64,000 nucleotides of DNA from an uncultured Gammaproteobacteria bacterium (GTDB lineage: Bacteria; Patescibacteriota; Microgenomatia; Levybacterales; UBA12049): positions 721,313-785,312 of the forward strand of contig CAZDOJ010000001.1 in assembly GCA_964507055.1 (NCBI GenBank), in the 5' to 3' direction. The notes under the pieces are model-generated. The model ran no database searches. It was given only the letters and a program-made list of their open reading frames with translations, and was not told where the DNA came from. Each line of letters starts with the position of its first letter. Within the stretch, counting starts at the first letter, position 1. Both the position numbers and the translations under genes were made by a program. Below are positions 1 to 34,087 of the stretch, in pieces.

Positions 1-631
1 TAATTCCTGCATTGGATAAATGATAAGTTCCATACTTATCAGTTTCGATTAGCTTTTTAATACCTTCTACCAGATCCAAGGAATATGTAGGCGTACTTAC
101 CTCATCTTTAACCAATTCAATTTTTTTATCTTTTATCGCTTTGTTTAAGACTGCATGGATAAAATTAGAATTCCATTTGCTATAAAGCCAAGAAGTTCGC
201 ACAATAAAATGCTTCTTAACTTTTTCTTTAATAATTTTTTCTGCTTCTAATTTCGTTTTACCAACAATTGTAATGGGATTTGGTTTATCATCTTCATGAT
301 AGGGAGTTTTCTTTTTTCCATCAAATACTTCATTTGTGCTAACGAGCAAAACAGCAGCATCAATCTCTGCAGCTGCTTCCGCAACATATTTTGTACCGTT
401 CACATTTATGTCATATGCTTTATCTGGATGTAATGCACATTCATCGCCTCGTGTGAGTGATGCAAAGTGAAAAATAATATCAGGTTTGAATGCTTTAATC
501 TGTTTATCAACTATTTTTTTGTCAGTAATATCAAGATTCTCTCGGGTGCCAAAAAACAAATCTTTTTGTGGATATATTTCAGCAATTGTTTTCGCTAACT
601 GCCCATTTGCTCCTGTTATAAATATCTTCAT
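1..631 (-). CDS. RmlD-family (dTDP-4-dehydrorhamnose reductase-like) NAD(P)-binding protein; 3' end cut by window edge
   Basis: Absent from the ORF track because it runs off the window. My reverse translation from ATG at 629-631 gives MKIFITGANGQLAKTI (Rossmann GxxGxxG), STNEVFDG, PITIVGKTKLEAEKII and VRTSWLYS, collinear with RmlD. The catalytic-Tyr position reads Val (see findings). Confidence 0.75.
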   Translation of the reverse strand, partial: MKIFITGANGQLAKTIAEIYPQKDLFFGTRENLDITDKKIVDKQIKAFKPDIIFHFASLTRGDECALHPDKAYDINVNGTKYVAEAAAEIDAAVLLVSTNEVFDGKKKTPYHEDDKPNPITIVGKTKLEAEKIIKEKVKKHFIVRTSWLYSKWNSNFIHAVLNKAIKDKKIELVKDEVSTPTYSLDLVEGIKKLIETDKYGTYHLSNAGI

Positions 632-727
632 AGAAAAACTTGATTGTAACTTAATATAACAAATTAAAGCTCAAATTGATAGTAGTGCCTCATGTATGAA
701 GAGGATGAACGAATAGCAAATTTATAA

Positions 728-1420
728 TTAGGAGATCTTTCGAAACTTAAGAAAGATATTATGGAATCCATCTTTGGAATACTCCATATCTTCCTTTTTC
801 AAGAAGAATTCTTGAAAAAATGGCTTTCGTCTAAAAATCCATTTCGACACATATGTGTTCAATTGTGAAAGGACAGTCCATCCTCCAGCAGTAACAACAC
901 ATTCTTCTATTGCAAACTTATTTTTTGTAGCATAACTAAGAAAATCTTTTTCTGTATAATGCCTGTGTCCTATTAACCAGAACGCTGGATCAAGAGAAGT
1001 AGAAATGAATGAACGATAAGGTGTAGAAAGATAAAACACTCCATTCTTTTTCAAAACTCGATGAACCTCTTTAAAGAATTTGTGCTCTGTATTTTGAGGA
1101 ATATGTTCAATAACTTCCCAAGAAACAATTGTGTCAGCACTCTTATCTTTAAACGGCAGATCGATTGCACTACCTACCTTTGTCGAAAAATTCTTATTCT
1201 TAATGTTTTCATTTATTGTCTTTAAATCTTCTTCAGATATTTCTATACCTACAATACTTTTAGGTTTTTTCTTAAATGCATGCAGCTCAAACCAACCATA
1301 TCCACAACCTACATTGATTATTGATTTATTTGTAATATCTTTAACATCTACAAAAGAAAGTGTTTTTTTTAATCTTCCAGTTAATCTTTTATCTGGCTTT
1401 TCGTTTAGTATATTCTTCAT
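728..1420 (-). CDS. class I SAM-dependent methyltransferase
   Basis: Motif I INVGCGYGWF, then DTIVSWEVIEHI and GVFYLSTP (Methyltransf_11-like). 4-nt ATGA overlap with the upstream GT2 gene. Confidence 0.8.
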   Translation of the reverse strand: MKNILNEKPDKRLTGRLKKTLSFVDVKDITNKSIINVGCGYGWFELHAFKKKPKSIVGIEISEEDLKTINENIKNKNFSTKVGSAIDLPFKDKSADTIVSWEVIEHIPQNTEHKFFKEVHRVLKKNGVFYLSTPYRSFISTSLDPAFWLIGHRHYTEKDFLSYATKNKFAIEECVVTAGGWTVLSQLNTYVSKWIFRRKPFFQEFFLKKEDMEYSKDGFHNIFLKFRKIS

Positions 1421-2321: not shown

Positions 2322-4946
2322 ATGGATTTATTAATTTTTTCAGAGCTTATATCAAGTAATAATTTCTTTTTACTTTTAAGTCATTATTTTTCGTTTTTTG
2401 TTCCATTTAGTGGACTAGGTATTTATCTGCAAGGAGTACCAACTGCAAATATCTTGGATTTTTTTTGGGGAACAAATGCAGGACTAAGAACACTTCCATT
2501 GCTTTTTTTCCTATCGATACTTCAGTATGTTTTTCAGAATAATTGGAGTACTGCTTATTTGGCTATTTCAATTGTACTGCCATTTATTACATTCTTAATT
2601 GCATGTCGATTTCTGGGAAAACTTTCGCTATTTAATTTTATAGGTGCAATGTTCTATGGAGGAAATGTGTGGATTATTAATAGAATTTTTACGGGATTTT
2701 GGCAATTAAATTTGAGTTACGCATTTCTTCCTTTTCTCATTGTAATTCCATTACGATTAGTTTCTACCAAAGTTCATATAACTGAACTATTATTTCTTGT
2801 TTGTATTTATAGTATTGCAGCAAGCTTTGTGCTTATTTCTCAGCCTCATTTTCTTATTATTACTATACTTTTTGCCGTATTTCAATTTATACAATGTTGC
2901 ATTTCTAAAGATACTGACGCTCTCAAAAGATTGCTTATTTTCTATTTACCATCTGCATTTCTTTTCTTTTGCATCAATGCTTATTTTTTTATACCTGGGA
3001 TATTCTTTCCTGAAAAACTATTTACGGCACCAAATCAATACTTTTCAATAGGATCTGTCATATTCAACGGTCAAGGAAATTTAATCGAACACGTTCTTCG
3101 ATTTGAACCTTTAGGACAATCTTCTCAAAATTTTACATGGACATGGATAAACTTTATACAGTTTATACCTATTCTGTTATTTCTTATCATTTTTCTTATC
3201 AATAAAAACCGACAATATATATATTTACTGCTTGTTTTACTATTTATTTTTTTTGCAAAAGGTTTAAATGAACCTTTTGCTGATATTAGTAGATGGATTT
3301 ATCAAAACATCTTTTTTATGCATTATTTCCGCGATCCAGCAAGATTTATCGCTGGCGTTGTACTTTTTTCTTCAATGAGCATTGCAACATTTCATATAAA
3401 GAAAAAGCTTCCAAAAAAATTGCAACTACTTATAGTTGCTAGCACTATTTTACTTTTTATAACCATTAACATTAACTCGTTCTATCCACCAAAAACGGAT
3501 ATCTTTAAATCTACGAGTATCCCCAAAGAGTATCTTAACCTACAGAAATTTATTGCAAATGATCCTCGTATTGATGCACAACAGCGACTATTAATTCTTC
3601 CAAATAGACATGGATTACAGGGCTACCCTTGGTATACAAATCCTTCTCCAAATACATCCAACACCATATTCGATGCCATCCTACCATTAGAAATTTCTTT
3701 AGCAAATAGCTCAAATTACCCAGATAACTATTCGAATCAAATTAGTGCTTATATTTATGAAGAGTATACGAAAACTTATGATGAAAAGTTACTTATACCG
3801 CTCGGAGTACAATATGTTCTTATAGATGAATCGATTATTAAGCCGCAACTAGAAAAGGATATAGCTACGAGTTCTGCACAGGCATTATTAAACAATCCAG
3901 CGTATCAAAGAGTCTTTTATGAAAAGCCACTTAGTCTTTTTAAAGTGAATACTCAAGCAACTCTTTTTAGCGACCAGAAACCAGTTTTTGCCATTGGTAA
4001 TTTAGCAACAATCACTAAACAATATGTTTCTGGTATCGAAAGACCAACTATTCTCCTTAATCAACCTATTAATAGGGATTTAATAAATAATTCATATTTA
4101 AAAGACAGGGAAATTTTAATTGATGTAAAGAATCCACTTTTAACTATTACGGCAGAATCACTTGCTGAAAAGTATTTTGTGGATATATTAAAGGCTGGAT
4201 GGGATTATGACAAGATTTTTGGAAATTATGAACCATATAAGATGAAATCGGTCATAACTAATGGACAACTCTTTACCAGTGGAAGAGCCGTCGTTTCGCA
4301 ACCTAAAAATGGATTCATGCATATAAATCATGATCTAGAACCCGGAACATATAAAATCCTAATTAAAGCTCTTTCAGAATTCGATAGTGTGGGGATAGAA
4401 CTAGCAGCAGGAAACAAAAAAAACATTCAAGTGGATACAAGTAATCAGCTACTTTGGATCGATGCTGGAACAATTAAAATTGACAAAAAGCAGTCATATA
4501 TAACATTAACAAAAACAGATAGTAATCCTTTAGTAATTGATTATCTACTTTTAGTTCCTGAAACAACTTGGAATGAGTCGAAGAATTCAATGAATCAAAT
4601 TCTTCAAAATATGCGTGCTTATCATCCAATAAATACACAAAACTCAATTACTCAATTTACTATGCAAGATAGAGATATTATAGAATTGGGTAAAGCTTAT
4701 CCTTATATTACTGCTCGCATAAGTTACAGCGATTATTGGAGAAGTGACACTCCTTCAGAAAATTTTATAAGCGATGCATATGGAATAACATTCATAGCAA
4801 AAAACATAAACATAAAAAATATAGATTACTATCCAAGTAAAATCTTCAAAGCTTTATTTCTTATAACATTGACTATTGGTATTATTGTCGGTTCTTATTG
4901 TTATTATTTTATTATAAAGAGACTGAAGAACCACTTATTTAAGTAA
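2322..4946 (+). CDS. large polytopic membrane protein, N-terminal TM bundle + ~480-aa extracytoplasmic domain + C-terminal TM anchor (putative GT-C-fold glycosyltransferase, AftD/DUF3367-like architecture)
   Basis: 874-aa ORF. The first ~390 aa are strongly hydrophobic with many helices. A soluble domain follows, then a terminal helix IFKALFLITLTIGIIVGSYCYYFII. Family assignment rests on architecture only. Confidence 0.4.
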   Translation: MDLLIFSELISSNNFFLLLSHYFSFFVPFSGLGIYLQGVPTANILDFFWGTNAGLRTLPLLFFLSILQYVFQNNWSTAYLAISIVLPFITFLIACRFLGKLSLFNFIGAMFYGGNVWIINRIFTGFWQLNLSYAFLPFLIVIPLRLVSTKVHITELLFLVCIYSIAASFVLISQPHFLIITILFAVFQFIQCCISKDTDALKRLLIFYLPSAFLFFCINAYFFIPGIFFPEKLFTAPNQYFSIGSVIFNGQGNLIEHVLRFEPLGQSSQNFTWTWINFIQFIPILLFLIIFLINKNRQYIYLLLVLLFIFFAKGLNEPFADISRWIYQNIFFMHYFRDPARFIAGVVLFSSMSIATFHIKKKLPKKLQLLIVASTILLFITININSFYPPKTDIFKSTSIPKEYLNLQKFIANDPRIDAQQRLLILPNRHGLQGYPWYTNPSPNTSNTIFDAILPLEISLANSSNYPDNYSNQISAYIYEEYTKTYDEKLLIPLGVQYVLIDESIIKPQLEKDIATSSAQALLNNPAYQRVFYEKPLSLFKVNTQATLFSDQKPVFAIGNLATITKQYVSGIERPTILLNQPINRDLINNSYLKDREILIDVKNPLLTITAESLAEKYFVDILKAGWDYDKIFGNYEPYKMKSVITNGQLFTSGRAVVSQPKNGFMHINHDLEPGTYKILIKALSEFDSVGIELAAGNKKNIQVDTSNQLLWIDAGTIKIDKKQSYITLTKTDSNPLVIDYLLLVPETTWNESKNSMNQILQNMRAYHPINTQNSITQFTMQDRDIIELGKAYPYITARISYSDYWRSDTPSENFISDAYGITFIAKNINIKNIDYYPSKIFKALFLITLTIGIIVGSYCYYFIIKRLKNHLFK

Positions 4947-4972: not shown

Positions 4973-6097
4973 TTAAAGGTAGGAAGATGTTGCCCTAATT
5001 ATAGTTTTTGAACTTGATCCATATATTCCTACCTGGGCAGCATTAGAAGTACCTGCTTGATAATTTAAGTAATAGGGTGTTTTTGAAGATACTGATAACA
5101 CTTTAGTACGATTAACAGAGTAACCTACTCCTACTGTCCCACCACCTGCAGAATAAGTAATTCCTACTGCTGTAAGATCTGCATCACTTTCGGAATTATT
5201 AGCAGTAGAGAGTGTTGCCAATGCGTGTATTAAACCCGTAGTCCCATATCCCACCACAGCAGCTTGATAACTCGTATCCCAAATACCTATTGGGATATTA
5301 ATCTGTAAAGCATTATACCATGTTCCATATGTTGGATTTGTTGTACCGATGAATGTATTATCCGTTACTTCCACTGTCCATTTGTTTGGATCAAGAGAGA
5401 ATCCAACAGGTGCTTTTTGTGCGGAGAAATAAACAGTGCTAATCGTAGAATTTGCAAGTGTATAATCAGTCCCTCCATAAAGAGTTATTGTTGTATTTGG
5501 AGATGAGTAAGATATACCTGTAATAAGAAAGTATTTTATTGTTGATGATTGAGTAAGCCTGATTCTCATACCTGGAGTGTAAACACCGGTAAGATTTCCA
5601 GATGCAGTAGCAGTGAAGGTAGGCGTATCGGCTGAGGCATACGTCCAAGTCTCGCCAACATTAGTCCAACCACCTGCAATTGCATTTTGAGGTGTATTAG
5701 TGGTTGGTAGAGGTAGAGGATAATTAAGATCCTGACTTGCAAGCCCACTCATCCTTATCTTGACTGTTGTAACTCCATTGTCAGATGCATAGGGGCCTAC
5801 CATAGCAAAACAATGTGAAGATGTACACTCACCCGGGTTATTCGCAAGAGGCTGCCAATAATACACACTATTCGTCGGATCTTTTATTTGAGTAGAGGCT
5901 ATACTAGTCGTAAGATTTGCTCCAGTATAATCCCATTCCAGGCGACCTGTTGTTGGATCAAAAGTTACATTTGTTGCTGTAAAATCACTCGATGCAAATA
6001 CACGTGGCACAAAAGTAAAAATGCTGATGCTTAAAAAACCGAATAGAAGCAAAAGAGAAAAGATTCGAAGATATTTTTGAATCCGAAATTTCTTCAT
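4973..6097 (-). CDS. secreted Ser/Thr/Gly/Tyr-rich protein of unknown function
   Basis: N-terminal signal-like MKKFRIQKYLRIFSLLLLFGFLSISIFTFVPRVFA|SS. The mature part is beta-rich with no TM segment. No family recognised. Confidence 0.6.
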   Translation of the reverse strand: MKKFRIQKYLRIFSLLLLFGFLSISIFTFVPRVFASSDFTATNVTFDPTTGRLEWDYTGANLTTSIASTQIKDPTNSVYYWQPLANNPGECTSSHCFAMVGPYASDNGVTTVKIRMSGLASQDLNYPLPLPTTNTPQNAIAGGWTNVGETWTYASADTPTFTATASGNLTGVYTPGMRIRLTQSSTIKYFLITGISYSSPNTTITLYGGTDYTLANSTISTVYFSAQKAPVGFSLDPNKWTVEVTDNTFIGTTNPTYGTWYNALQINIPIGIWDTSYQAAVVGYGTTGLIHALATLSTANNSESDADLTAVGITYSAGGGTVGVGYSVNRTKVLSVSSKTPYYLNYQAGTSNAAQVGIYGSSSKTIIRATSSYL

Positions 6098-6161: not shown

Positions 6162-7262
6162 CTATAATTTAATAAGTTTCTGCATAAAGCGTACACTAAC
6201 ATCTGCTGTTTTATCCCATGAATATTGGAGAGAATCTTTATAAACTTCTTTTTGCATACTTATATATTCTTTCTTATTATGTAATATTTTAATTACTTTA
6301 TTCGCAAGTTCCTCAGGTGTTTTATTGACTAAAATACCTGTCCGATTCTGTTTTACAATATCTCGAAACCCTTCAATGTTATAAACCACAGCAGGAGTTT
6401 TTACCAATCCTGCTTCAGGAATAGTTAATCCCCAACCCTCCTGCGTAGATGCACTTACAAGAAGATGCGATTTAGATAGGAGTAGGAACTTTTCTTTTTC
6501 ATTGACAAATCCCAATAATTTCACGGATTCTTGTAAATGTAGTTTAGTAATTTTTTCTTTTAATTGATCTACAAATTGTTCTTCTCCTGAACCAACAAGC
6601 CAAAGTTTTACTGTTGGTAATTTCTTATGCATTAACGCCAACGCTTCTATAAGGTCCTGTGTTCCTTTTTGTTTATTTAAACGCCCTACAGAAATAAGCG
6701 TTAAATCCTTTTCTTTTTTCTCAATTTTTATATGCTTCGGAATCGTAATTCCCATTGGAAGTACCTCAATATTTTTTTGGTTGTACCCCACCGCAATAAG
6801 ATCAATTTTCGTTGAAAGTGATATAACCATTGTCGGAACATTTTTATAAAGATATAAATACATTTTCTCGATGAATAAGAAAACCAGAGCAATAGGATAA
6901 GGGAAAATCTTAAAAAAAAGTTTACTAGCTACTTCACAAGTTAAGGCAACAGTTTTTTTCGGAGCATAGAGGGCAGAAAAAAAAGGAAACCAATGTACTT
7001 CGTCAACAATTACGTCATACTTATTTTTATTATTCATATAAAACAAAAATGCATGTATATGAACAGTCCACCACTTCCCTCGACGTTTAAAAAGGACATT
7101 ATCTATCTTTTCTTCAGCCTTACTTTCCAAAAACGCAGATGAAAATTGCGTTACTTTATGGCCTGATTTTACCCATCTTTTTGCCATTTCGTGTGTCAGG
7201 ATTTCTGCTCCTCCGCCTGCAGGATTCTTGATATCACGCCAATTTAATATAAGTATTCTCAT
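6162..7262 (-). CDS. glycosyltransferase family 4 (GT-B)
   Basis: EX7E motif EGWGLTIPEAG, and N-terminal MRILILNWRDIKNPAGGGAE typical of GT4. Confidence 0.85.
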   Translation of the reverse strand: MRILILNWRDIKNPAGGGAEILTHEMAKRWVKSGHKVTQFSSAFLESKAEEKIDNVLFKRRGKWWTVHIHAFLFYMNNKNKYDVIVDEVHWFPFFSALYAPKKTVALTCEVASKLFFKIFPYPIALVFLFIEKMYLYLYKNVPTMVISLSTKIDLIAVGYNQKNIEVLPMGITIPKHIKIEKKEKDLTLISVGRLNKQKGTQDLIEALALMHKKLPTVKLWLVGSGEEQFVDQLKEKITKLHLQESVKLLGFVNEKEKFLLLSKSHLLVSASTQEGWGLTIPEAGLVKTPAVVYNIEGFRDIVKQNRTGILVNKTPEELANKVIKILHNKKEYISMQKEVYKDSLQYSWDKTADVSVRFMQKLIKL

Positions 7263-8086
7263 GAGGATTTTGCAGTTTGGACACTCTCAACATTAAAGTT
7301 CTTTTTATTATTATAGTATTTAAGTATTCTCAATCGATAAAATACCGCGGCTGTGTCCCAAAGCATGAGGAAAATGATTCGCCACATACTGCCCGATGTT
7401 ATACTACCACTTTTAAAGTTTATTTCAACTGGTGCCTCATAAATTCTTTTGTATCCTAATGCATATGACACTGCAAGCATCTCTATATCGAAAGCGTATC
7501 TTTTTACTATTAATCTTGGGAGAACATCTTGCACAACTTTTCTCTTAAAAAATTTGATACCCACTTGTGTATCTCGAACTTTAAATCCAAAGAGTATTCG
7601 GGTAAAAAGACGATACCCCCAGGATAATACTTTTCTAAAAAAAGGATAATTAACTTTTGATGCAGAATGGAGCTTTGATCCAACAATAACGTCAGCGTTA
7701 TACCAAATCATATGATTAAGTAACATAGAAAAACCGACAGTATTTATATCCATCCCGGCATCAATAAATCCAATTACATCGCCTTTTGCTAACAACATCC
7801 CATATCGTATTGCATAACCTTTTCCTTGATTCTGTTTGTATGCAACAGTTTTTACTTTATTTGATTTAATTTTCTTTGTATTTTCAAATGTCTTATCAAC
7901 CAATCCATCCACTACAATTATAATTTCATATTTAAACCCAACGGCATCCAATGTATCTGTAATATTTTTAATATCCCGAACAATAGTTTTTTCCTGTTTG
8001 TAAGCTGGGATTACAACTGAAAGTAAATTAATGGAGAAACTGTCGCGGTTATTCATAGAGGTAGTATAGCAAAAGATTTTTCTCAA
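7259..8086 (-). CDS. glycosyltransferase family 2, polyprenol-phosphate-sugar-synthase-like (C-terminal membrane helix)
   Basis: LSVVIPAYKQEKTI, IDAGMD and DTQVGIKFF (DPM1/GtrB-like Q/V-G-x-K-x-F), plus C-terminal hydrophobic MWRIIFLMLWDTAAVFY. The start may be the internal Met at 8056. Confidence 0.7.
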   Translation of the reverse strand: MRKIFCYTTSMNNRDSFSINLLSVVIPAYKQEKTIVRDIKNITDTLDAVGFKYEIIIVVDGLVDKTFENTKKIKSNKVKTVAYKQNQGKGYAIRYGMLLAKGDVIGFIDAGMDINTVGFSMLLNHMIWYNADVIVGSKLHSASKVNYPFFRKVLSWGYRLFTRILFGFKVRDTQVGIKFFKRKVVQDVLPRLIVKRYAFDIEMLAVSYALGYKRIYEAPVEINFKSGSITSGSMWRIIFLMLWDTAAVFYRLRILKYYNNKKNFNVESVQTAKSS

Positions 8087-11396: not shown

Positions 11397-11465
11397 GTGC
11401 AGATCTTATTGTAGCAGAATTTCATGACTATTCAAATGCTGGGGTATAGAAAGAAATTGAGATAT

Positions 11466-12434: not shown

Positions 12435-12479
12435 AGCATATGTATTCTAGCAAAAATTATATAATCATGATAAAGAATT

Positions 12480-18866: not shown

Positions 18867-18873
18867 TGAAATA

Positions 18874-22074: not shown

Positions 22075-22332
22075 ATGGATCCTAACTTGCAAAACGCTCT
22101 CATTTATTTCCTCTATGTATGGTCACTAATTTGGAAAGGCATTGCTTTATGGAGAGCAGCTCATTATAAACAACGAAATTGGTTTGTAGTCATGCTTGTA
22201 GTTAATACTGTTGGACTATTGGAGATACTTTATTTACTGCGTTTCTCGAAAAAAAGATTAACATTAGATGAAGTCAAACATTGGAAAAATAACTTTGTAA
22301 AGAGAAGCCCTGAAGAAAAGACAAGAGATTAA
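22075..22332 (+). CDS. small membrane protein, DUF5652-like
   Basis: WSLIWKGIALWRAAHYKQRNWFVVMLVVNTVGLLEILYL matches my recollection of the DUF5652 pattern common in CPR genomes. Candidate promoter upstream: TTGCAT-17-TAGGAT. Confidence 0.5.
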   Translation: MDPNLQNALIYFLYVWSLIWKGIALWRAAHYKQRNWFVVMLVVNTVGLLEILYLLRFSKKRLTLDEVKHWKNNFVKRSPEEKTRD

Positions 22333-25509: not shown

Positions 25510-26227
25510 ATCGAAGATCGTACCATAAAGTAAAACTTTCTATAATTGCCCGAATAATAACTCGTACATTCCCACCACTTTGATCTCCATGCTTTCTTGG
25601 ATAATGTGTCACTTTTACTTGAGCAATTTTCAAATTTTCTTTCTTTGCTTTTGCAAGAATCTCTGTTGTTAACATGGCCCCTTCTGATTTCAATGGGGAG
25701 ATTGCTGCAATAGCTTCTTTTCTAAATAACTTAAATCCGCAATCAATATCTCTAAAATAAAATCTAAAGAAAATAAAATCCCAAACTTTTAGTAAATTCA
25801 TAAGCACATGTCTGAATGGATGATCAATTCTACGATTACGATATCCAATTACGATATCATTATCTTCAATTTTTTCTATAAAGTTTTCAATTTCTGCGAA
25901 ATCAAATTGACCATCACCGTCATTAAATACAACATATTTATATTTTGCATTTTTAAATCCTTCTCGCAATGCAGTCCCATAACCTCTGTTTGGTTGATGA
26001 GAGACAACTCGTAAGCGTTTATCCTTTTCTGCTAATTTTTTGGCAACTTGTAAAGTATTATCTGTCGAACCGTCGTCGACCATAATTATTTCCCATTTCT
26101 CTGCGACTTTTTCTGCAACTGGAATAGCATTTTTTACTACCTGTTTTACATTCGCTTCTTCATTCCAGAAAGGGAAAAATATTGTTAAAGAAGAAAGTTT
26201 ATTTATTTTTTTCTTTTCTTTTTTCAT
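25496..26227 (-). CDS. GT2 polyprenol-phosphate sugar synthase (DPM1/ALG5-like)
   Basis: MVDDGSTDNT, FNDGDGQF and DCGFKLF. Confidence 0.75.
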   Translation of the reverse strand: MKKEKKKINKLSSLTIFFPFWNEEANVKQVVKNAIPVAEKVAEKWEIIMVDDGSTDNTLQVAKKLAEKDKRLRVVSHQPNRGYGTALREGFKNAKYKYVVFNDGDGQFDFAEIENFIEKIEDNDIVIGYRNRRIDHPFRHVLMNLLKVWDFIFFRFYFRDIDCGFKLFRKEAIAAISPLKSEGAMLTTEILAKAKKENLKIAQVKVTHYPRKHGDQSGGNVRVIIRAIIESFTLWYDLRYGRA

Positions 26228-27938
26228 GTAAATGAGTAACCTTTCTACTTGAGATTATACCAGCTACCAATACTATAACTCCAGTAAGAGTTATCATATT
26301 TGCGGCTTTTTCTATGGGAGTTTGTACATATGTTGCAATAACTGTATGCTTACCTTTTGGAAGTGACAGTTGTAATCCTGTAGAAGTATTTTTATATACA
26401 GTATTCTTGCCATCTACAGATATTTGCCAAGCAGGAAAGTATGCAATATTAAGCTTCACTACGCCATCTTTTATCATTAAAATTTCAGCTTTTGCTTGTT
26501 TCGATGTTACAGATTCAGATCGTATACTACCAATACTTTTTTCAACCTCGAATTTTTTAGTTGCAACATGTCGCTTATCTTTAGGCTTCTGGAAACCTGG
26601 AGGCATATATTCATCAGATATTTTTGAAGTATCCCACCGAATAAACGATGTATCTATGTACTGCTGTGAGGATTTAGGGACAATACTTGATGGAGCAAAT
26701 ACATCAATATTTACATAGATAATTGCTACAACGAGGAGTAAACAAAGTATAACTCTTTTCAAACCTGTCAAAGAAAGTACAAAAACACCTCCAAGAAATG
26801 AGATGAAAAAGCTTACTAAGATTAAAAATCTCCATGGGAATTGGAAGAACGACATGAGAGAGAATGTATCCCAAATAAACTTAGAATAGTCGACAGTTAA
26901 TAGTAATGATAATCCTAGTCCACCAATACTTAATAGGATAGGTAAGGTTACCTTCTTATTTTTTCTCAGCAAAATAAGTGGAAGAAGAGATAATACTGCT
27001 AAGAGAAGATGGATTTTACCAACTTTGAATGATAGTCCATCCGTACATCCAGGTACGGATCCACCATATGCCCAAGGACTATCCAATAGTTGTGGAATAC
27101 AGACAAAATGATCATGATAATCAGATCCGCCCCCGACTACAGAAAGTACATTTGTATATTTCATCTCAACTGGCACAGGCAACCAATAAAACGCAGACAG
27201 CATTATTCCAAGTATCAGACTAAATAACAAATATGAACCTGTGGTAAATTTATTTATTTTTGATCTAGCAATAAGAATCACTGTATAAGCAAAAATGAAC
27301 GGAGAAACCATCATCGCTGTCAAGTTATGTGAAAGAATTATGACAGCGAAAGCAATTGAAGCTGTACTGATCCAAACCCATCGTTTGCGTTTTAAAAGTA
27401 ATTTGGTTTCTTTTCCCTTTTCTTGTAACAAAAGTTGATGATTTTGAAACACTTTATAAAGTCCAAAGAAGACTAGGGGAATAAAAGCATATGCCCATAA
27501 TTCAGCTATTGCCCCACGAACATATAAATTGAGAGCATGGTACGGAGCATATACATAAAGCATTGCAGACACAAATCCACCTAATCTTCCCCAAAATTCT
27601 TTTGCTAACAAATACATAAATACCCCAGCAAGAAGTGTTCCCAATCCGATCATAATTTTTGTAGCAATTAAGCTATCAAATCCTAAGATATTAAAAAAGC
27701 CTCCGATGTAATATGAAAAAGGTGCATAAAAATTAAAAATAGGATAACCGTAGCCGTAGCCTAAATTTTCGACCCATCGTACAGGGAAAATACCATCTGA
27801 AAGTGCATCTTTCATTTCCGAAACACGTGCTACTTGAGTATCATCATGCATTGGGAAAAACCCTTGAGAAAATAATGGAAAGATTGCGGGAATACTGAGA
27901 AAGAGCAATATAATTATTAAAAGTATATTCTTTTTCAT
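26199..27938 (-). CDS. polytopic membrane protein with extracytoplasmic beta-rich domain and C-terminal TM anchor (putative GT-C-like)
   Basis: First-loop FFPMHDDTQVARVSEMKDALSDGIFPVRWVENLGYGYGYPIFNFYAPFSYY, about 12 helices, a ~130-aa soluble domain, and terminal helix ITLTGVIVLVAGIISS. Confidence 0.4.
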   Translation of the reverse strand: MKKNILLIIILLFLSIPAIFPLFSQGFFPMHDDTQVARVSEMKDALSDGIFPVRWVENLGYGYGYPIFNFYAPFSYYIGGFFNILGFDSLIATKIMIGLGTLLAGVFMYLLAKEFWGRLGGFVSAMLYVYAPYHALNLYVRGAIAELWAYAFIPLVFFGLYKVFQNHQLLLQEKGKETKLLLKRKRWVWISTASIAFAVIILSHNLTAMMVSPFIFAYTVILIARSKINKFTTGSYLLFSLILGIMLSAFYWLPVPVEMKYTNVLSVVGGGSDYHDHFVCIPQLLDSPWAYGGSVPGCTDGLSFKVGKIHLLLAVLSLLPLILLRKNKKVTLPILLSIGGLGLSLLLTVDYSKFIWDTFSLMSFFQFPWRFLILVSFFISFLGGVFVLSLTGLKRVILCLLLVVAIIYVNIDVFAPSSIVPKSSQQYIDTSFIRWDTSKISDEYMPPGFQKPKDKRHVATKKFEVEKSIGSIRSESVTSKQAKAEILMIKDGVVKLNIAYFPAWQISVDGKNTVYKNTSTGLQLSLPKGKHTVIATYVQTPIEKAANMITLTGVIVLVAGIISSRKVTHLHEKRKEKNK

Positions 27939-27939
27939 T

Positions 27940-29454
27940 TTATTGCTTTAGTTCATACAGTGTGTAATAAGATTCTTTATCTTCTTTTTGAATTTGCAGA
28001 ACCTTTGTGAGTGTCCATGTATCTGGAGCTAAGCCAATCCCTTCGCAAGGAGGACATGGTTGATAAAAGACAACATAAGTTGGCATTGTTTTGCTTGCAT
28101 CGAGTATTTCTTGCGGAGGGGTATCATTTATTGGCCAGTAACCTTGAACTTTTATATTTGGATTCGTGCCAAGATATATATCGAGTGCATATGGCATGAG
28201 GCCAAATGTACCTTGCGTTGCTACATAAATTTTCTCATTTTTTGCTTTCGCTTCGAGAAACTTTACTGTTTCCTTCACGCCATTTCCGGCAGGCCAATCA
28301 GTAACGAATTGTTCTCTATCGCCTTGCGGAATTGCTGCTTTAGAAAAATTAGTCATGATATGAAAATCAGTAACGATCCACATGCCCGTAAATACAACTG
28401 CAATAAGCACTTTTAACCAGCCTGTTTTTACATATGTGAGTAATGTATACAACGAAAATGCACCCAATAAAATAAGCGGCATAGTCATAAAAAGAATAAA
28501 TCGTGGATAGATAACTTTTCCAAAAAACGCCAAAGCCATAAAAGGAACAATAAACCATACAAGTAATAAAAGTTTTTCTCTTGTGTATTTCTTACTGACG
28601 AAGAATGAAGCAAGGACAAGAATAAGGAACGGAAGTGTCATATAACCAATCAACCAACCACTCAAACCTTGTAGGTTGCCAAATACATAAGCAAACGGAT
28701 TCTGGAACCAGTCACTGAATGAATAAATGAACGTAAGATTTTTCTCGCCAATAATATGATAAAAAGGCGACAGTCGTAGAATTGCATAGATTGCCTGAGC
28801 CAATACAAATGCAACTACTGCAAATCCAAACCACTTAAAAAGTTTCTTCCTATCTAACTTTTCTTTGAATGGAAAAAGAAGCAAAGAAAACGGAAGCAAA
28901 ATAAATCCAAAATTTGCACTTGTCTTCGTCAACATTCCTCCTCCAACAATCATCCCCAATAATAATGCTAAGTCTAATCGCACATATCTTGCAAGCAAAA
29001 CGGAGAAATATAATGACCATATGATGAATAAGGCAACCATTGAATCATACAGAGCCATGCGATCATAGACCAAGGCAAACGGGTACAGGACATATAAGAT
29101 GCTCGCTGTTAAACCAATAAACTTATTCTTAAATAGCTCTCTCCCAAGAAGGAACATACCTACCATTGAAGCAAAACCAGTAAAAACAGAGACAAGTCTT
29201 CCTGCAACTAAAGGATCTTTTACAAATTCGATAAGGATCATTGCTGCCCAAATAAATGACGGCTGCTTTCCATCGGTAAGAGAGATAAATCTCCATGTGG
29301 CATCATTATTTGCAATTTGAGCCCAACGGATATAGATGGCCTCATCAGTAAAGATAGGTAGCCCGGTGAGGTTATATAAGCGAGTAAAGAAGTATAATCC
29401 CGCTAACAAAACGAAGAATGTACTGAGATAGAGATGTTTTCTAATATAACGCAT
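27940..29454 (-). CDS. ArnT/PMT_2-like GT-C glycosyltransferase
   Basis: First-loop PIFTDEAIYIRWAQ (DE motif), multi-TM, and a C-terminal ~130-aa soluble domain. Confidence 0.6.
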   Translation of the reverse strand: MRYIRKHLYLSTFFVLLAGLYFFTRLYNLTGLPIFTDEAIYIRWAQIANNDATWRFISLTDGKQPSFIWAAMILIEFVKDPLVAGRLVSVFTGFASMVGMFLLGRELFKNKFIGLTASILYVLYPFALVYDRMALYDSMVALFIIWSLYFSVLLARYVRLDLALLLGMIVGGGMLTKTSANFGFILLPFSLLLFPFKEKLDRKKLFKWFGFAVVAFVLAQAIYAILRLSPFYHIIGEKNLTFIYSFSDWFQNPFAYVFGNLQGLSGWLIGYMTLPFLILVLASFFVSKKYTREKLLLLVWFIVPFMALAFFGKVIYPRFILFMTMPLILLGAFSLYTLLTYVKTGWLKVLIAVVFTGMWIVTDFHIMTNFSKAAIPQGDREQFVTDWPAGNGVKETVKFLEAKAKNEKIYVATQGTFGLMPYALDIYLGTNPNIKVQGYWPINDTPPQEILDASKTMPTYVVFYQPCPPCEGIGLAPDTWTLTKVLQIQKEDKESYYTLYELKQ

Positions 29455-29474: not shown

Positions 29475-30929
29475 CTATACCTTTTCAGCAATCAGGTGAT
29501 TCAACCTAACTTTACTAAGAATTACTTCAAGGTCTTTTTTCCTGAACATGTACAATACGTTTAATGTGATCGGAGGAATAAAAATAAGTATATAAGTAAT
29601 GATTGGCCAAATTACTGATTGTGTATTAATCCGATAAATAACCCACAGCAATGGATATGCAAATAAAGATGTAATTGAAAGACCTACTGTAGTTAAGAGC
29701 AACTTTTTATCAAGAACAAGTGGAATTAAAGGCAATATCCAAAGGACATACCAATTCCAATATGCTGTACTAATAAATAATAAATATACTAAGAGTACAA
29801 CGATGTATGCATAGACAGGTTCTATATCATGCTTCCAAACCTGCCACGTAAAATAGAGTAACCATAACAGGAATAAGACAAAAACTACTTGTATTAATTG
29901 CGGCTGGAACAATAGAAGAACTGTAGGTAGCGATTGCCAGTAAACACCACCATTGTATGCAACTCGTTGCAAAAACTCTATAAGATTTACTTGCATAAAC
30001 GAAAATAGTAATGTGTTTATGCTAACGAATCCTGCAACAAAAGAGAGCAATCCAAGATATTTTTTCTTTTTTACTAATGAAAGTAGACAAAAGAAGAATA
30101 AGACAATTGGAATTAATTTTACTTGCACTGCTAGGGCTAAAATTATGCCTGCAAAAAACCATAGCTTCTTACGGAAGAAATAATAACTGAGCAGTGTAAA
30201 GAAAATCATCATACTGTCGTTATGTCCCGAGCCGAATATTTCAAGTATAAAAATTGGATTCCAGAAAACGAATATTAATGCCCAATTTAGATAATTTTTC
30301 TTTTGCTCTTTTAGTACTAAATACAACACATAAAATATCCCAGCTGCAAATAATGCAGGGACCAATTTATAGAGAATAACAAGAGTGACCAAATCATTCT
30401 GTCCAATATACGATGGGAGCAAATATAACAAAAAGTGTATTCCACCATACACACTCGTTGTATCTTTCCAATCTGCTAATACACCAAATTGGTCATCTGG
30501 AAATGTAGCTGGCTTAACTTGCCAAATATTTTCACCATGTACTGTTGCTACACGTTCAGAAAAAATATAAGAGAAAATATCTGTGGATAATATCGGGAAT
30601 GATACAAATGTTACTATTTGGAAAAGTACCGTAAACAGTATTATTTGTTTGAGCGTAAACTTTACCTTGAGAGCAATCAGATATAAAATTACCGCAGCTA
30701 CAGAAACGGCTGCAAATATGATTGTGGGAATAGAATTTAACCCATATCCAGATAATATTGTTTGCATCGAAAAAAGAAAATCTTTTGCTGCTGGATAAAG
30801 ATTTCCAATTCCAATAATTGCTCGAGGGTCTCGAAATAGTAAAACCCATGAGAGGATCAAATATGTAAAAAAACAAAGACTAAGCAAACTAGCAATTATG
30901 ATTGGTAATTGGGATTTATGTAACTTCAT
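29475..30929 (-). CDS. polytopic membrane protein, GT87/DUF2029-like mannosyltransferase candidate
   Basis: STDIFSYIFSERVATVHGENIW (D...Y...G.N pattern) and WNPIFILEIFGSGHNDSMMIFFTLLSYYF. Paralog of 32097..33329. Confidence 0.4.
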   Translation of the reverse strand: MKLHKSQLPIIIASLLSLCFFTYLILSWVLLFRDPRAIIGIGNLYPAAKDFLFSMQTILSGYGLNSIPTIIFAAVSVAAVILYLIALKVKFTLKQIILFTVLFQIVTFVSFPILSTDIFSYIFSERVATVHGENIWQVKPATFPDDQFGVLADWKDTTSVYGGIHFLLYLLPSYIGQNDLVTLVILYKLVPALFAAGIFYVLYLVLKEQKKNYLNWALIFVFWNPIFILEIFGSGHNDSMMIFFTLLSYYFFRKKLWFFAGIILALAVQVKLIPIVLFFFCLLSLVKKKKYLGLLSFVAGFVSINTLLFSFMQVNLIEFLQRVAYNGGVYWQSLPTVLLLFQPQLIQVVFVLFLLWLLYFTWQVWKHDIEPVYAYIVVLLVYLLFISTAYWNWYVLWILPLIPLVLDKKLLLTTVGLSITSLFAYPLLWVIYRINTQSVIWPIITYILIFIPPITLNVLYMFRKKDLEVILSKVRLNHLIAEKV

Positions 30930-32100
30930 GTTTTTTAATTTTATACAAAATTAGCCAGACTGTTAAAGTATACATAAATGGAATAATTAGAAGGAAGTAT
31001 CGTGACCAAACAGGAATAAATGAAAGAAATAGGAGATAGATGATAATCCATATACATGGGAATACTATCATCGATTTGCGATATTTTCTAAAAACAAAAA
31101 CTATAGTTATTGCTGAAATTACGGTAAGTAAAATCCATCCAAAATGCCATTCATCCACAACAGATATTTGCCCCCACCAATTAGCATATTTACCGGTAAA
31201 TATAATTTCCCATGGAGCTGAGAAAGACCCTTTCGCACCTCCGGCATAAAAATTGATAATCCATTTTTGAACGCCTAGAAAATCCATAAATGAATTGCCT
31301 AACAAAAAGTATTGGATATAAGTAGCAACAAACACTATACCTGCAATCGGCAGTGTCATAATATACTTTTTAACTAGTTTGAGTTGCTTCGTGACAACTA
31401 AATAAAGCACAATTGCCCCTATAACGAGAGGAAATGTAGATGCTGTAGATTTAGTTGCAGCCATGAGACCAAGAACAACAGCAGAAGCAAAATACTTTTT
31501 TTTCAGGAAGAAGTAGCAGATCATGAAGAATAGTCCAATATATAAAAGATCTAACAAAGATATTTGAAGTTGTGTAAAAAATAACGGTTCAAAAGAAAGT
31601 AATAAGACTGGAATAAAGGCTGCTAATTTACTCTTAAAGAATAATGTATTAACGAGATAAAAAGCATATAAAGCAAACAGTCCACTTAATAATGCAAAGA
31701 TATTCTGATTCTTAAAAATAAGCTCAGATAAACCAATAAGATACTTTCCAAGGGGTGGAATTTCTGCATTTAAAAGGGTCGGGTCTTTGCCATGAATGTA
31801 TTCCCATCCTGCATATGTATATACACCATCATCGCCTATGGCATTTTTTTTGAGATCAGCTGCTGCTGCATTATTCTTATTCTGTTCAAACCATTGATCG
31901 TCCCAAATACATGTGTAGGGATTTACATGCGGATCCAAATTTTCACATGCAGGTTTGGTGCTCCATTGAGAATTCTCATACTTTAGCTTCCAATAATCTG
32001 CATTAAAAGGGGTAAGATAATCAGTTCTATATTCATATATTCTGAATGCAATATGTACCGCAAAAAGAATCAGTAAACCAATAAATACTTTCTTTCTCAT
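30916..32100 (-). CDS. short GT39 (PMT-like) phospholipid-carrier-dependent glycosyltransferase candidate
   Basis: Loop-1 GDDGVYTYAGWEYIHGKDPTLLNAEIPPLGKYLIG resembles the PMT DE...HPPLGK signature; followed by ~9 helices. Confidence 0.45.
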   Translation of the reverse strand: MRKKVFIGLLILFAVHIAFRIYEYRTDYLTPFNADYWKLKYENSQWSTKPACENLDPHVNPYTCIWDDQWFEQNKNNAAAADLKKNAIGDDGVYTYAGWEYIHGKDPTLLNAEIPPLGKYLIGLSELIFKNQNIFALLSGLFALYAFYLVNTLFFKSKLAAFIPVLLLSFEPLFFTQLQISLLDLLYIGLFFMICYFFLKKKYFASAVVLGLMAATKSTASTFPLVIGAIVLYLVVTKQLKLVKKYIMTLPIAGIVFVATYIQYFLLGNSFMDFLGVQKWIINFYAGGAKGSFSAPWEIIFTGKYANWWGQISVVDEWHFGWILLTVISAITIVFVFRKYRKSMIVFPCIWIIIYLLFLSFIPVWSRYFLLIIPFMYTLTVWLILYKIKKHEVT

Positions 32101-33329
32101 TTCTTTTTCTTTCGTTTAACTTGACGTGCAAAAAGTATTTGCTTGTAAAAAAAGTAGGCGGTAATAATAAGAAATGCTAAAGTATAACTCAAGAAATTCA
32201 TATCTAAAAGAATTTGAGGTATTGGCTTATCCCAGTTACCCGTAAAAAGGAATGGTACATAATTCATCAAGGAGAAAAATGACACAATGACAGCTGGAAT
32301 TAGCACATAATATCGATAGGAAATGAGTGCAGCAAAAGCTAAAACATCAATAAGATACCACGGCTGAAATGTACCTCTATATGATTGTGCCGCCGCTCCC
32401 CCAATAAGAAGTATTACTGCTATGCCAATAATAAAACCCCATTTTCGATGAATCTTCTCGGCCTTCATTCGGTGGATAACGACAAATAGTGGTAATAAAA
32501 CAGCTGTGACAAATTTTATTGCAATGGAAAGAAATAGTAGCCCATACGCTTTACCATGTTTTTCTATAATCATAAAATAGAATGCCCAAAGGGCAAAAAA
32601 CATCATGACAATGTCAATGTGAGGACTTACAACACTTTCTATAAGCATCAGTGGATTTAATCCAAAGAAAATAAGCCCCATTACTTCTCGTTCCGGAGCA
32701 ATCGTCTTTAATATTTTTCCAATAAAGAATACTGAACCGATGAAACAAGCTATCATTAACAATTTAAAAAGGAAAAATGTTGGCAAAAAGAATTGCAAAC
32801 CTATGAAAGAAAGAGGTACTGTAATCACCAACCAGAACGGACCATATGGATATTCTCGATGGGTCCAACGCATAAATGAAAGCATCGGATCCTCAGGATA
32901 ATCTAGAGCTTTTTGTACATAAGGATTGTCTCCATAATGAGTTATAATCTTTGCATCAAATATATAATTAAAAATATCATAGGAAAAAGCGTTGTAGGAA
33001 AAGGTAAGAATAATTGTGGCTGCACCAATCAAAATCCACGTAAACTTTTTTTGAATCTTCTTTTTGGTAGCTAGTCTTAAAAAGATTACATAAAAGACAA
33101 AAAGGATCACAACAAGTGAAACAAAAAGGGTTGCAGAAAGAGGCCTGTCAAAATATCCAATCTGTTGAAAAGAGCGTACAATTTCCTGAAGTGCTTCATT
33201 TCGAGAGAGAGCCAAACTTAAATCAATTTGTGTAAAACTGTAGAAGAATAATCCAACAAGCGGGACACAATAAAAGAAAAGGATTAAATATTCTTTTAAT
33301 GATAAATTTTTAAATAGTGTTTTCACCAT
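32097..33329 (-). CDS. polytopic membrane protein, GT87/DUF2029-like, paralog of 29475..30929
   Basis: SYDIFNYIFDAKIITHYGDNPYV and LNPLMLIESVVSPHIDIVMMFFALWAFYF align with its paralog. Confidence 0.4.
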   Translation of the reverse strand: MVKTLFKNLSLKEYLILFFYCVPLVGLFFYSFTQIDLSLALSRNEALQEIVRSFQQIGYFDRPLSATLFVSLVVILFVFYVIFLRLATKKKIQKKFTWILIGAATIILTFSYNAFSYDIFNYIFDAKIITHYGDNPYVQKALDYPEDPMLSFMRWTHREYPYGPFWLVITVPLSFIGLQFFLPTFFLFKLLMIACFIGSVFFIGKILKTIAPEREVMGLIFFGLNPLMLIESVVSPHIDIVMMFFALWAFYFMIIEKHGKAYGLLFLSIAIKFVTAVLLPLFVVIHRMKAEKIHRKWGFIIGIAVILLIGGAAAQSYRGTFQPWYLIDVLAFAALISYRYYVLIPAVIVSFFSLMNYVPFLFTGNWDKPIPQILLDMNFLSYTLAFLIITAYFFYKQILFARQVKRKKKK

Positions 33330-34087
33330 TAATTATATCTTCCTGCAAGTACATTTCTTTTAATTTTTACAAGATCTTTTACTCCCTGAATCGCATCGCG
33401 TACAGGATTAACTCTTCTCGTCTCTACATGAAGCCAATTTACATGAACTTCTTTTATTTTATAGCCATGATTTCTTGCAATGTAGAGAATCTCAATATCT
33501 GATCCAAAAGTAATTGCTGTCCCCTTAACTTTCTCAAAACCATTTTTTAGAACTTTTAATTTATTAAATACATCGTCCGCTGCTTTTGCAGTAAACAATT
33601 TAAATCCACATTGTGTGTCTGTTATATCATTAATGCCTATTATCATTTTTCTCATAATGATTGCACTTCGAGAAATAAATAAACGTATCTCCGGAGCACC
33701 TTTTCGCTGCGTACTTCTCGAACCAATGGCGATATCATAGTCTCCACTTTCAAGATATGGTAGTAAATTATTAACTTCTTCAATAGGAGTAGCCTGATCC
33801 ATATCAGTAAAAAGACGGTACTCACCTTGTGCTTTCAACATGCCGGTAGTAACAGCACCAGCTTTTCCATAGTGAGGGTTTTTAATTAAGATAAAATGAG
33901 GATTTTCTTTTATAAATTTTTCGATAAACTCGACGCTACCGTCTCTCGATCCATCATCAGCGATGATTACTTCGTAGGAAATCTTTTTCTTTTCAAGAAA
34001 ATGCTGTACTTTTTCAAGCACACCTTTCTGGAGATTAGCCATCTCATCATAGCAAGGAATAACAACAGAAAGAAATATTTTCTTCAC
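33329..34087 (-). CDS. GT2 polyprenol-phosphate sugar synthase (DPM1/ALG5-like)
   Basis: LSVVIPCYDEMANL, IADDGSRDGS, FTDMDQAT and TQCGFKLF. Confidence 0.75.
   Translation of the reverse strand: MKKIFLSVVIPCYDEMANLQKGVLEKVQHFLEKKKISYEVIIADDGSRDGSVEFIEKFIKENPHFILIKNPHYGKAGAVTTGMLKAQGEYRLFTDMDQATPIEEVNNLLPYLESGDYDIAIGSRSTQRKGAPEIRLFISRSAIIMRKMIIGINDITDTQCGFKLFTAKAADDVFNKLKVLKNGFEKVKGTAITFGSDIEILYIARNHGYKIKEVHVNWLHVETRRVNPVRDAIQGVKDLVKIKRNVLAGRYN

Follow-up and report, generated by a model that had tools for sequence, protein, structure and literature searches.

The first 34 kb of the DNA studied here, a 64-kb stretch of contig CAZDOJ010000001.1 (the window, i.e. the whole stretch that was analyzed, 64,000 nucleotides long), are occupied by an island of glycosylation genes that encodes ten polytopic membrane proteins together with soluble glycosyltransferases, flippases and enzymes of nucleotide sugar supply. 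In our reading, which we consider probable, the island consists of several joined three- or four-component extracytoplasmic glycosylation systems and represents an envelope-glycan factory typical of Microgenomates-type bacteria of the Candidate Phyla Radiation (CPR). Its task would be to synthesize or decorate a glycopolymer of the wall, glycoproteins of the surface, or both. Taken singly, the enzymes are of known kinds. What is unusual is the number of paralogous glycosyltransferases of the GT-C type that a single locus of this very small genome contains, the presence of three families without a Pfam model, and an STT3/AglB-like family of 670 residues without the WWDYG motif.

Gene content and layout of the island

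The genes of the window were checked one by one against Pfam, NCBIfam and the public gene calls. Positions 1-34087 contain 29 genes, and 27 of these are glycan-related according to Pfam, which was run on every open reading frame (ORF), and in many cases also NCBIfam. They comprise eight GT2 and three GT4 glycosyltransferases, two MOP/Wzx-type flippases, two GalE epimerases, one RmlD, one methyltransferase and the ten polytopic proteins. The two genes outside this set encode a secreted protein of 374 residues (4973-6097) and an 85-residue DUF5652 membrane protein (22075-22332). A preliminary description of this DNA, made from its letters and ORFs, had given the same inventory, and our recount agrees with it class by class, except that the RmlD gene is cut by the start of the window.

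Only two genes of the island, the number described earlier, are located on the plus strand (2322-4946 and 22075-22332); all others are on the minus strand, which applies to every gene of the window below unless stated otherwise. The gaps between neighboring genes of the same strand never exceed 69 nt. Each of the start/stop overlaps reported earlier (1417/1420, 7259/7262, 24067/24070, 32097/32100 and 33329) is present, and there are five more, of 11, 14, 14, 29 and 38 nt. The genes form three co-directional runs, from 34087 to 22333 (11 genes), from 22005 to 4973 (16 genes) and from 2259 to 1, and this spacing suggests that the runs are transcribed polycistronically. Unfortunately, consensus scans for promoters and terminators turned out to be uninformative, as promoter-like sites were fewer than in shuffled sequence, terminator-like sites were about as frequent as in shuffled sequence, and no terminator was intergenic. 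The operon structure is therefore judged from gene spacing. The window is AT-rich, and the GC content of the island (0.31-0.36) compares with 0.35-0.42 to its right. For three genes, the public calls are shorter than the longest ORFs, giving 419 residues for the first flippase, 511 for the protein at 12480-14015 and 513 for that at 14873-16414.

The left edge at position 1 stems from the cut of the window and not from the island itself, because the same contig carries island genes for at least another 10 kb to the left (10790-20693 of the extended locus, L039). This flank contains the remainder of RmlD (277 residues in full), one GT2, two GT4, a hexapeptide acyltransferase, a 714-residue paralog of the 874-residue island protein (profile E-value 3e-13), a 522-residue paralog of the 511-residue one (E-value 1e-59) and a 353-residue protein with six transmembrane (TM) helices and an ectodomain of ~165 residues, which has no family assignment. 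With this flank, the contiguous island is at least 44 kb long. At least 12 GT-C-type genes are contiguous and a thirteenth (38461-40047) is located ~4 kb away, which makes at least 13 in a stretch of about 50 kb. Among the contigs that encode these proteins, the longest measures 1.32 Mb. We also considered a mobile genomic island and ruled it out, as an integrase is absent and the synteny extends across phyla; the latter argues for vertical inheritance with rearrangement.

The GT-C membrane proteins

The ten polytopic proteins of the island range from 394 to 874 residues, and an eleventh, at 38461-40047, lies outside it. A hydropathy scan shows about 8-15 hydrophobic segments in each of the ten and a range of about 8-19 when all 11 are counted, and the two proteins modeled with AlphaFold2 (see below) form helical bundles. 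Pfam assigns six of the ten to GT-C-type families, namely three to PMT_2, one to PTPS_related and two to GT87 (one of them under the cut-off), whereas the other four and the outlying protein have no Pfam match. For these Pfam-less proteins, sequence and profile searches of the PDB returned nothing useful, and it was the comparison of folds alone that worked.

The PMT_2 proteins are encoded at 14873-16414 (513 residues; E-value 5.5e-11, 43.4 bits against a cut-off of 26.1), 16464-18122 (552 residues; 3.4e-8, 34.3 bits against 26.1) and 27940-29454 (504 residues, PMT_2/PMT family; 37.4 bits against 26.1). The first two are paralogs (blastp E-value 1.4e-48). A D46-E47 motif is retained in 45 of 45 homologs of the first; the second contains the motif 'NADEAAF' and the third D37-E38. 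Pfam finds no MIR domain in any of the three, whereas eukaryotic PMT proteins carry one in loop 5; the three are bacterial enzymes of the PMT_2 type. The PTPS_related protein, of the GT-C type, is encoded at 26199-27938 (579 residues; PF10131, 29.4 bits against 26.4) and has a 'MHDDTQ' motif after the first TM helix (TM1). At 29475-30929 there is a PimE-like member of family GT87 (484 residues; PF09594, 31.0 bits against a cut-off of 25), and its paralog at 32097-33329 (410 residues; blastp 3e-13) is GT87-like with 22.1 bits, under the cut-off of 25.

A short GT-C protein of 394 residues (30916-32100) is related to PMT_2. Among its 324 homologs, some have PMT_2 or GT87 matches or are called PMT by JGI, and the motifs G89-D90-D91 and E113-x-PPLGKY are invariant in the family. 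The 511-residue protein (12480-14015), with a D47/R50/D51 motif after TM1, is a probable GT-C enzyme according to hhalign and residue conservation. Its Pfam-less family has 677 representatives at 50% identity, and one of 42 homologs has a PMT_2 match. The outlying protein at 38461-40047 (528 residues, motif 'YYDQARD'), which the preliminary description had counted as the eleventh polytopic protein, is real; it is a paralog of the 511-residue protein (blastp 1.3e-11) and thus also a probable GT-C enzyme. Profile-profile alignment with hhalign connects the 511-residue family to the PTPS_related type (probability 94.8%, E-value 5e-8), the 394-residue family to PMT_2 (95.8%), the 874-residue family to the PTPS_related type (96.8%) and the PTPS type itself to the PMT_2 group (94%).

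Conserved acidic motifs are found in all 11 proteins. They read DE in the three PMT_2 proteins, DD in the PTPS type, GDD in the 394-residue protein, D..RD in the 511- and 528-residue proteins and SxDIFxYIF in both GT87 proteins; the 874-residue protein has D46 and the 670-residue protein D141. In most cases the motif directly follows a Lys/Arg-rich N-terminus and TM1, and by the positive-inside rule it should therefore face outward. The early loop after TM1 is where GT-C enzymes have their catalytic or metal-binding residues. The 670-residue protein is an exception, as its invariant D141 is located in the loop after the fourth helix. Taken together, the data support the assignment of the polytopic proteins, several of which had been described as having GT39/ArnT/PMT or GT87-like motifs, as GT-C glycosyltransferases and not transporters. 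Their donors are putatively polyprenyl phosphate-linked sugars, as suggested by the location of their genes next to four Dpm1-like GT2 genes.

The 670-residue and 874-residue proteins

The two largest Pfam-less proteins were modeled with AlphaFold2 and compared to known structures with Foldseek, and both gave significant full-length matches to GT-C enzymes. The 874-residue protein (2322-4946, plus strand) represents a rare family, with only 10 full-length homologs and one marginal match besides itself. In its model (pLDDT 74.8), a TM domain at the N-terminus is followed by an extracytoplasmic domain, which includes a beta-sandwich similar to carbohydrate-binding modules (CBM), and by a TM anchor at the C-terminus; this layout is AftD/YfhO-like. 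The best Foldseek match is mycobacterial AftD (6w98, E-value 2e-10 over 822 columns), with STT3, DPY19, ArnT and AftA ranking next, and the ectodomain matches beta-sandwiches of the CBM6/35/61 type. The likeness to YfhO is one of architecture only (TM domain, ectodomain, C-terminal TM helix): the protein has no match to PF09586 at E <= 0.01, whereas the true YfhO proteins of related genomes do match this model.

The 670-residue protein (18874-20886) belongs to a family known until now from Patescibacteria alone. The protein has a GT-C TM core followed, at the C-terminus, by a small globular domain resembling the one of AglB/PglB, and its top Foldseek matches are STT3, AglB and PglB. However, it differs from these enzymes in its conserved residues, which are D141, Y171-H172, N265, K308 and Q474. 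The WWDYG motif is found neither in the protein nor in its 56-sequence alignment, and Pfam, STT3 included, matches neither the protein nor either of two homologs. Membership in the true oligosaccharyltransferases was ruled out on account of the absent WWDYG motif. The 670-, 874- and 511-residue types are thus three GT-C families without a Pfam model, and we regard them as candidates for new CAZy families.

Candidate synthases, flippases and sugar supply

The eight GT2 proteins fall into two groups in blastp comparisons. Four of them, encoded at 7259-8086, 18141-18866, 25496-26227 and 33329-34087 (the first gene of the long minus-strand run), form a Dpm1-like group that also resembles GtrB, GacI and AglJ. 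They align over nearly their full length to the models of AglJ, PpgS, ArnC, PgfS and a Dol-P-hexose transferase with E-values of 1e-9 to 7e-37, all under the equivalog cut-offs. For example, the protein at 18141-18866 (Glycos_transf_2 3.7e-36) aligns to the full AglJ model with 127 bits, and scores on the PgfS model are 43-74 bits, compared with a cut-off of 500. A hydropathy scan finds no TM helix in any of the four, and GacI/WpsA likewise have none (PMC10821137). Each of the four genes adjoins, or sits inside, a block of GT-C and flippase genes. Judging from their sequences, these proteins are candidate polyprenyl phosphate-sugar synthases.

The other four GT2 proteins are soluble and of the non-Dpm1 type (1417-2259, Glycos_transf_2 8.5e-26; 14005-14910; 22333-23091; 23156-24070; assigned by Pfam and grouped by blastp). 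The three GT4 proteins, at 6162-7262 (Glycos_transf_1 3.7e-35), 9357-10412 and 20935-22005, each have the canonical E-G/H-F/W-G-x4-E (EX7E) motif, at residues 275, 260 and 270, respectively. Flippase 1 (8096-9355, 419 residues as called) matches Polysacc_synt_3 with an E-value of 5.6e-18, and flippase 2 (24067-25509) with 4.3e-44 and the MOP flippase model NF007773 with 115 bits. The two GalE proteins, UDP-glucose 4-epimerases encoded at 10428-11396 and 11466-12434, score 396 and 426 bits on TIGR01179 against a cut-off of 262, and RmlD (dTDP-4-dehydrorhamnose reductase; 1-631, 5' part only) scores 202.7 bits over 210 residues on TIGR01214. A class-I S-adenosylmethionine-dependent methyltransferase is encoded at 728-1420 (Methyltransf_11 8e-20; all NCBIfam matches far under their cut-offs), and its context suggests a role in glycan modification. 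Finally, an 85-residue DUF5652 membrane protein with two TM helices (22075-22332, plus strand; public gene call and Pfam) may assist a GT2 protein as a small membrane partner, in the manner of GacJ/WpsB. Its gene runs opposite to its neighbors and sits by itself in the one large gap of the island.

Absence of the classical assembly enzymes

The preliminary description had noted that an initiating phosphoglycosyltransferase, a Wzy polymerase or ligase and a chain-length regulator could not be recognized, and this held. Among 53 ORFs of the window scanned against Pfam (E <= 0.01), none matches the WecA/MraY-type (PF00953) or WbaP-type initiating transferases, and none the Wzy_C/O-antigen ligase or Wzz/PCP domains. 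WecA, UbiA, LCP, YfhO and DUF2304 sequences of relatives, used as lineage-specific queries in six-frame searches of the window, gave no match. In the 10 kb left of the window, the Pfam annotations show no phosphoglycosyltransferase, Wzy, Wzz or LCP. The initiating enzyme may be encoded elsewhere in the genome, because the islands of relatives carry an LCP ligase and, in some cases, a WecA-type gene.

Conservation in related genomes

GTDB species representatives were searched with a 16-sequence alignment, and 32 loci with a relative of the 670-residue protein were compared. The record titles of these loci name Levyibacteriota, Woesebacteria, Cerribacteria, Paceibacterota and Patescibacteria. 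Others (L007, L008, L010, L013, L015, L016, L018-L020, L022, L025, L027-L029, L032, L037 and L038) are titled 'uncultured Gammaproteobacteria/Pseudomonadales', which looks like a mislabel, because the islands are syntenic with those of Levyibacteriota/Woesebacteria and because of the isolate name HK-STAS-PATE-17.

Two modules recur. One consists of flippase 2, two or three GT2 genes, a GT4 gene and the gene of the 670-residue protein (Wzx2-GT2-(GT2)-GT2-GT4-P670), plus a PTPS-type GT-C; the other contains three PMT_2 genes, a GT2 gene, the gene of the 511-residue protein, GalE, GT4, flippase 1, GT2 and GT4, in this order. The related loci, of up to 22 kb each, have a median of 4 and a maximum of 7 GT-C genes. 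Their GT-C density equals that of the window, about 0.3 per kb, which makes the island a trait of the lineage rather than an oddity of a single genome. For the remark in the preliminary description that an abundance of such enzymes in CPR genomes is known, the searchable literature offered no documentation: a search for CPR or Patescibacteria combined with GT-C found no paper documenting GT-C richness or such an island. Glycosyltransferases are not among the Microgenomates-enriched membrane families listed by Meheust et al. (2019).

Several relatives have additional components. A gene of the LCP (LytR_cpsA_psr) wall-polymer ligase is located beside the module of the PTPS-type GT-C and flippase 2 in L030 (12020-13135), L015 and L031. 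Genuine YfhO GT-C proteins are found in L011 and L035, and in L038 by sequence motifs only. In L016, L017 (13469-13849), L019, L026 and L028, a short GT2 gene is followed by one for a DUF2304 membrane protein of ~125 residues. These pairs resemble GacI/GacJ, with GacJ being what we take to be a DUF2304 protein. In L020 (3432-5490), the homolog of the 670-residue protein stands back to back with a GT87-like gene, and genes for a WecA-type (Glycos_transf_4) and a UbiA-type prenyl phosphate transferase are located ~5 kb upstream of it. This arrangement resembles the three-component pathways of decaprenyl-phosphoribose and pentofuranose transfer. L023, the locus of a second Patescibacteria genome, shows the same layout of ORFs as L020.

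Proposed mechanism and its precedents

If our reading is correct, RmlD and the two GalE enzymes would supply the nucleotide sugars dTDP-rhamnose and UDP-Gal/GalNAc. At the membrane's inner face, the four soluble Dpm1/GacI-like GT2 proteins would place single sugars on polyprenyl monophosphate. A part of these products would then probably be lengthened to short oligosaccharides by the three GT4 and the four other GT2 proteins, and the two MOP/Wzx-type flippases would carry the lipid-linked sugars outward. The ten GT-C proteins of the island (at least 13 with the neighboring paralogs) would transfer the sugars to acceptors outside the membrane. These acceptors are likely a heteropolysaccharide attached to the cell wall, surface proteins rich in Ser/Thr, or both. 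The product likely contains rhamnose and Gal/GalNAc, and O-methyl and O-acyl groups are possible. This is in agreement with the earlier proposal that the island serves the extracytoplasmic transfer of single sugars or short glycans and not a classical O-antigen or capsule assembly. The proposal needs one amendment: the presence of two MOP flippases, three GT4 and four GT2 proteins of the non-Dpm1 type implies that lipid-linked oligosaccharides are built as well, and not single sugars alone.

The same logic has published precedents in GtrABC, GacIJKL and the lactococcal combination of WpsA/B, Wzx and GT-C on C55-P (PMC10821137), and a MATE flippase together with a GT-C enzyme has also been described (PMC11127046). 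In such three- and four-component systems, the flippase is either of the GtrA or of the Wzx/MATE type (PMC11127046, PMC10821137). The former type (GtrA/GtcA) is small, with 4 TM helices, and the latter is represented by GacK, WpsG and ORF14. Much as our island joins candidate GT2 synthases with flippases and GT-C enzymes, a GT2 synthase, a flippase and a GT-C enzyme occur together in GtrA/B/C of Shigella and Salmonella, GacI/J/K/L of S. pyogenes and CsbB/GtcA/YfhO of Bacillus and Listeria; GacK is a Wzx-type flippase as here, and GacI and WpsA lack TM helices, as do the short GT2 proteins here. However, each of these systems has one GT-C enzyme and adds one side-chain sugar, whereas one locus here combines 4 candidate synthases, 2 flippases and 10-13 GT-C enzymes.

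The closest published analogue of the module running from 26227 to 18874 is the lactococcal polysaccharide pellicle (PSP) locus, with WpsA/B, WpsC-F, the Wzx-type WpsG and the GT-C enzymes WpsH and WpsJ. In this pathway, a GT2 enzyme initiates on C55-monophosphate, cytoplasmic glycosyltransferases elongate, a Wzx-type protein flips and GT-C enzymes polymerize and attach the product (PMC10821137). The order fits that of the GT2 gene at 25496, flippase 2, two GT2 genes, GT4 and the 670-residue protein, although the likeness is one of layout and not of sequence-level orthology as far as the comparison went. As PSP-like initiation on C55-monophosphate needs neither WecA/WbaP nor Wzy, it would explain why the phosphoglycosyltransferase and Wzy are missing. 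The lactococcal locus differs in having 2 GT-C enzymes and in its ABC-exported rhamnan acceptor, TagO and LcpA, which are absent from the window.

The arabinogalactan and lipoarabinomannan pathways of mycobacteria (EmbA-C, AftA-D, PimE, Pmt, Ppm1, Lcp1) also employ many GT-C paralogs, which extend a wall glycan outside the membrane from polyprenyl phosphate-sugars. AftD is the best structural match of the 874-residue protein, GT87 is the PimE family, and some relatives of the island add WecA-type, UbiA-type and LCP genes. The embCAB-aftA region has a similar number of GT-C genes per kb. However, the mycobacterial genes are scattered over the genome, with about four adjacent at most; UbiA and DprE are not encoded in the window, our locus belongs to a small CPR genome, and the sequence identity to the structural matches is about 10%.

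Several observations weigh against this reading. GalE is the sole enzyme of the island that reaches an equivalog cut-off. The GtrA-type or DUF2304-type partner of the known systems was not recognized in the window (for DUF2304, in a six-frame search with a query from a relative). The Wzx-type proteins could equally flip polyprenyl diphosphate-oligosaccharides made by an initiator encoded elsewhere in the ~1.3-Mb genome. The model of the 874-residue protein is of only moderate confidence, and its N-terminal 57 residues have a pLDDT below 50. The GT-C status of the proteins at 12480-14015 and 38461-40047 is based on profile-profile evidence alone.

Alternative explanations

A possible, though not the favored, explanation is that the island serves mainly protein O-glycosylation of the Pgf/PMT type, in which the PMT_2, GT87 and related GT-C enzymes would pass sugars from the polyprenyl phosphate carriers loaded by the short GT2 proteins to secreted or sortase-anchored proteins rich in Ser/Thr, to S-layer proteins or to pilins; a wall polysaccharide would be a secondary target at most. 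It overlaps with our reading and differs from it in the acceptor alone. The closest analogue for a protein-directed role is the S. mutans Pgf system (PgfS, PgfE, PgfM1, PgfM2), in which a GT2 enzyme, a 4-epimerase and two GT-C enzymes act on Ser/Thr-rich proteins, and the substrate adhesins are encoded in the cluster itself (PMC12041528). In a similar manner, the island encodes at 4973-6097 a secreted protein of 374 residues that has a signal peptide, no Pfam or NCBIfam match, 25% Ser+Thr (against an average of 12%) and 7 N-x-S/T sites, which makes it a candidate substrate; it has no homolog in the 32 related loci. The three PMT_2 proteins with their DE loop motif, the PgfS scores of the short GT2 proteins, and a sortase gene in the window with an adjoining gene for a Thr-rich secreted peptide of 60 residues point in the same direction. 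However, PMT_2 is a broad family that includes modifiers of lipids and polysaccharides such as ArnT-like proteins, the MIR domain is missing, and PgfM1 and PgfM2 belong to the YfhO family, which no protein of the window matches in Pfam. The best PgfS score is 74 bits against 500, and our locus has many more components than pgf. Moreover, polysaccharide assembly is the typical setting of RmlD, GT4 and Wzx genes, and the islands of relatives contain the LCP wall-polymer ligase. As LCP genes of relatives have a similar size, the 374-residue single-TM protein was itself considered as an LCP ligase and rejected, having no LCP similarity and a Ser/Thr-rich secreted composition.

A more doubtful proposal is that the 670-residue family acts en bloc, as an oligosaccharyltransferase, ligase or polymerase that replaces Wzy, WaaL, PglL or PglB and handles glycans made by the GT2 and GT4 proteins and flipped by flippase 2. 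In many relatives the gene is kept beside the Wzx2-GT2-GT2-GT4 module, the top structural matches of the protein are STT3, AglB and PglB, and the lactococcal GT-C enzymes do handle Wzx-flipped C55-P-oligosaccharides (PMC10821137). On the other hand, both the WWDYG motif and a Pfam match to STT3 are absent, and the gene has no Wzx neighbor in L020-L025 and L032-L034. An even bolder version, which we consider unlikely, would credit Microgenomates-type CPR bacteria with a GT-C repertoire of their own, including the three families without a Pfam model, in which the 670-residue protein is a new class of en bloc oligosaccharyltransferase or ligase for Wzx-flipped glycans begun by a Dpm1-like GT2 on polyprenyl monophosphate. 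Such a bacterial pathway would be akin to archaeal Agl or lactococcal PSP assembly. WecA/WbaP, Wzy and WaaL would then be unnecessary, and the resulting coat would mediate episymbiosis.

It is improbable that the island is a classical Wzx/Wzy locus for capsule or exopolysaccharide, with the initiator encoded elsewhere and Wzy hidden among the unannotated polytopic proteins. Two Wzx-type flippases, the GT4 and GT2 genes and the nucleotide sugar genes would fit such a locus, Wzy proteins are notoriously divergent, some relatives have a WecA-type gene in their islands, and the 353-residue six-TM protein without a family lies just left of the window. However, all polytopic proteins of the window link to GT-C and not to Wzy_C/O-antigen ligase. 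Neither Wzz/PCP nor a phosphoglycosyltransferase was found in the window or, by Pfam annotation, in the adjoining 10 kb on the left. The classical pathway also offers no function for ten to thirteen GT-C enzymes.

The last alternative takes the polytopic proteins for transporters or for membrane proteins of unrelated kinds, and their glycosyltransferase signatures for coincidence. It could draw on the four of ten that have no Pfam match of their own and on the empty PDB sequence searches, and it is effectively refuted by the Pfam families, models, hhalign results and motifs.

Neighboring genes

To the right of the island, a membrane acyltransferase of 649 residues is encoded at 41113-43062 (Acyl_transf_3, PF01757, 2.1e-20). 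It is possibly an enzyme of glycan or peptidoglycan O-acylation, and whether it belongs to the island is uncertain. Just right of the island there is a cellulase-family hydrolase of glycoside hydrolase family 5 (45614-46867, plus strand). At 52526-53420 (minus strand), an ORF of 60 residues is located immediately upstream of the sortase gene; it has a signal peptide, a Thr-rich sequence (TATPTNTTNNTTTVTPTTSA) and a C-terminal 'PATGN', and may be a sortase-processed, glycosylatable surface peptide. The gene at 60438-63239 (minus strand) encodes a protein of 933 residues with sigma-70 regions 2 and 4 and extra helix-turn-helix domains, which is unusually large for a sigma-like factor. ARAGORN detects a tRNA-Glu (CTC) at 37905-37977 (plus strand); a scan of the window at the Rfam gathering thresholds returned no family, not even tRNA.

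Biological significance

CPR bacteria, or Patescibacteria, are ultrasmall and mostly uncultured episymbionts whose surface chemistry is essentially unknown; a study of Saccharibacteria terms their glycosylation processes 'unexplored' (bioRxiv 10.1101/2024.11.25.624915). If 1.32 Mb is near the genome size, this organism devotes at least 3% of its DNA to one glycosylation island. Such an outlay suggests that a surface glycan with heavy branching or high variability is central to what the organism invests in. Plausible roles of such a glycan are host attachment, phage evasion and envelope stability, and the conserved gene modules are concrete enough for tests in heterologous hosts. In summary, the island hints at a sugar coat of unusual elaboration, for which enzymes of known kinds are used in record numbers.

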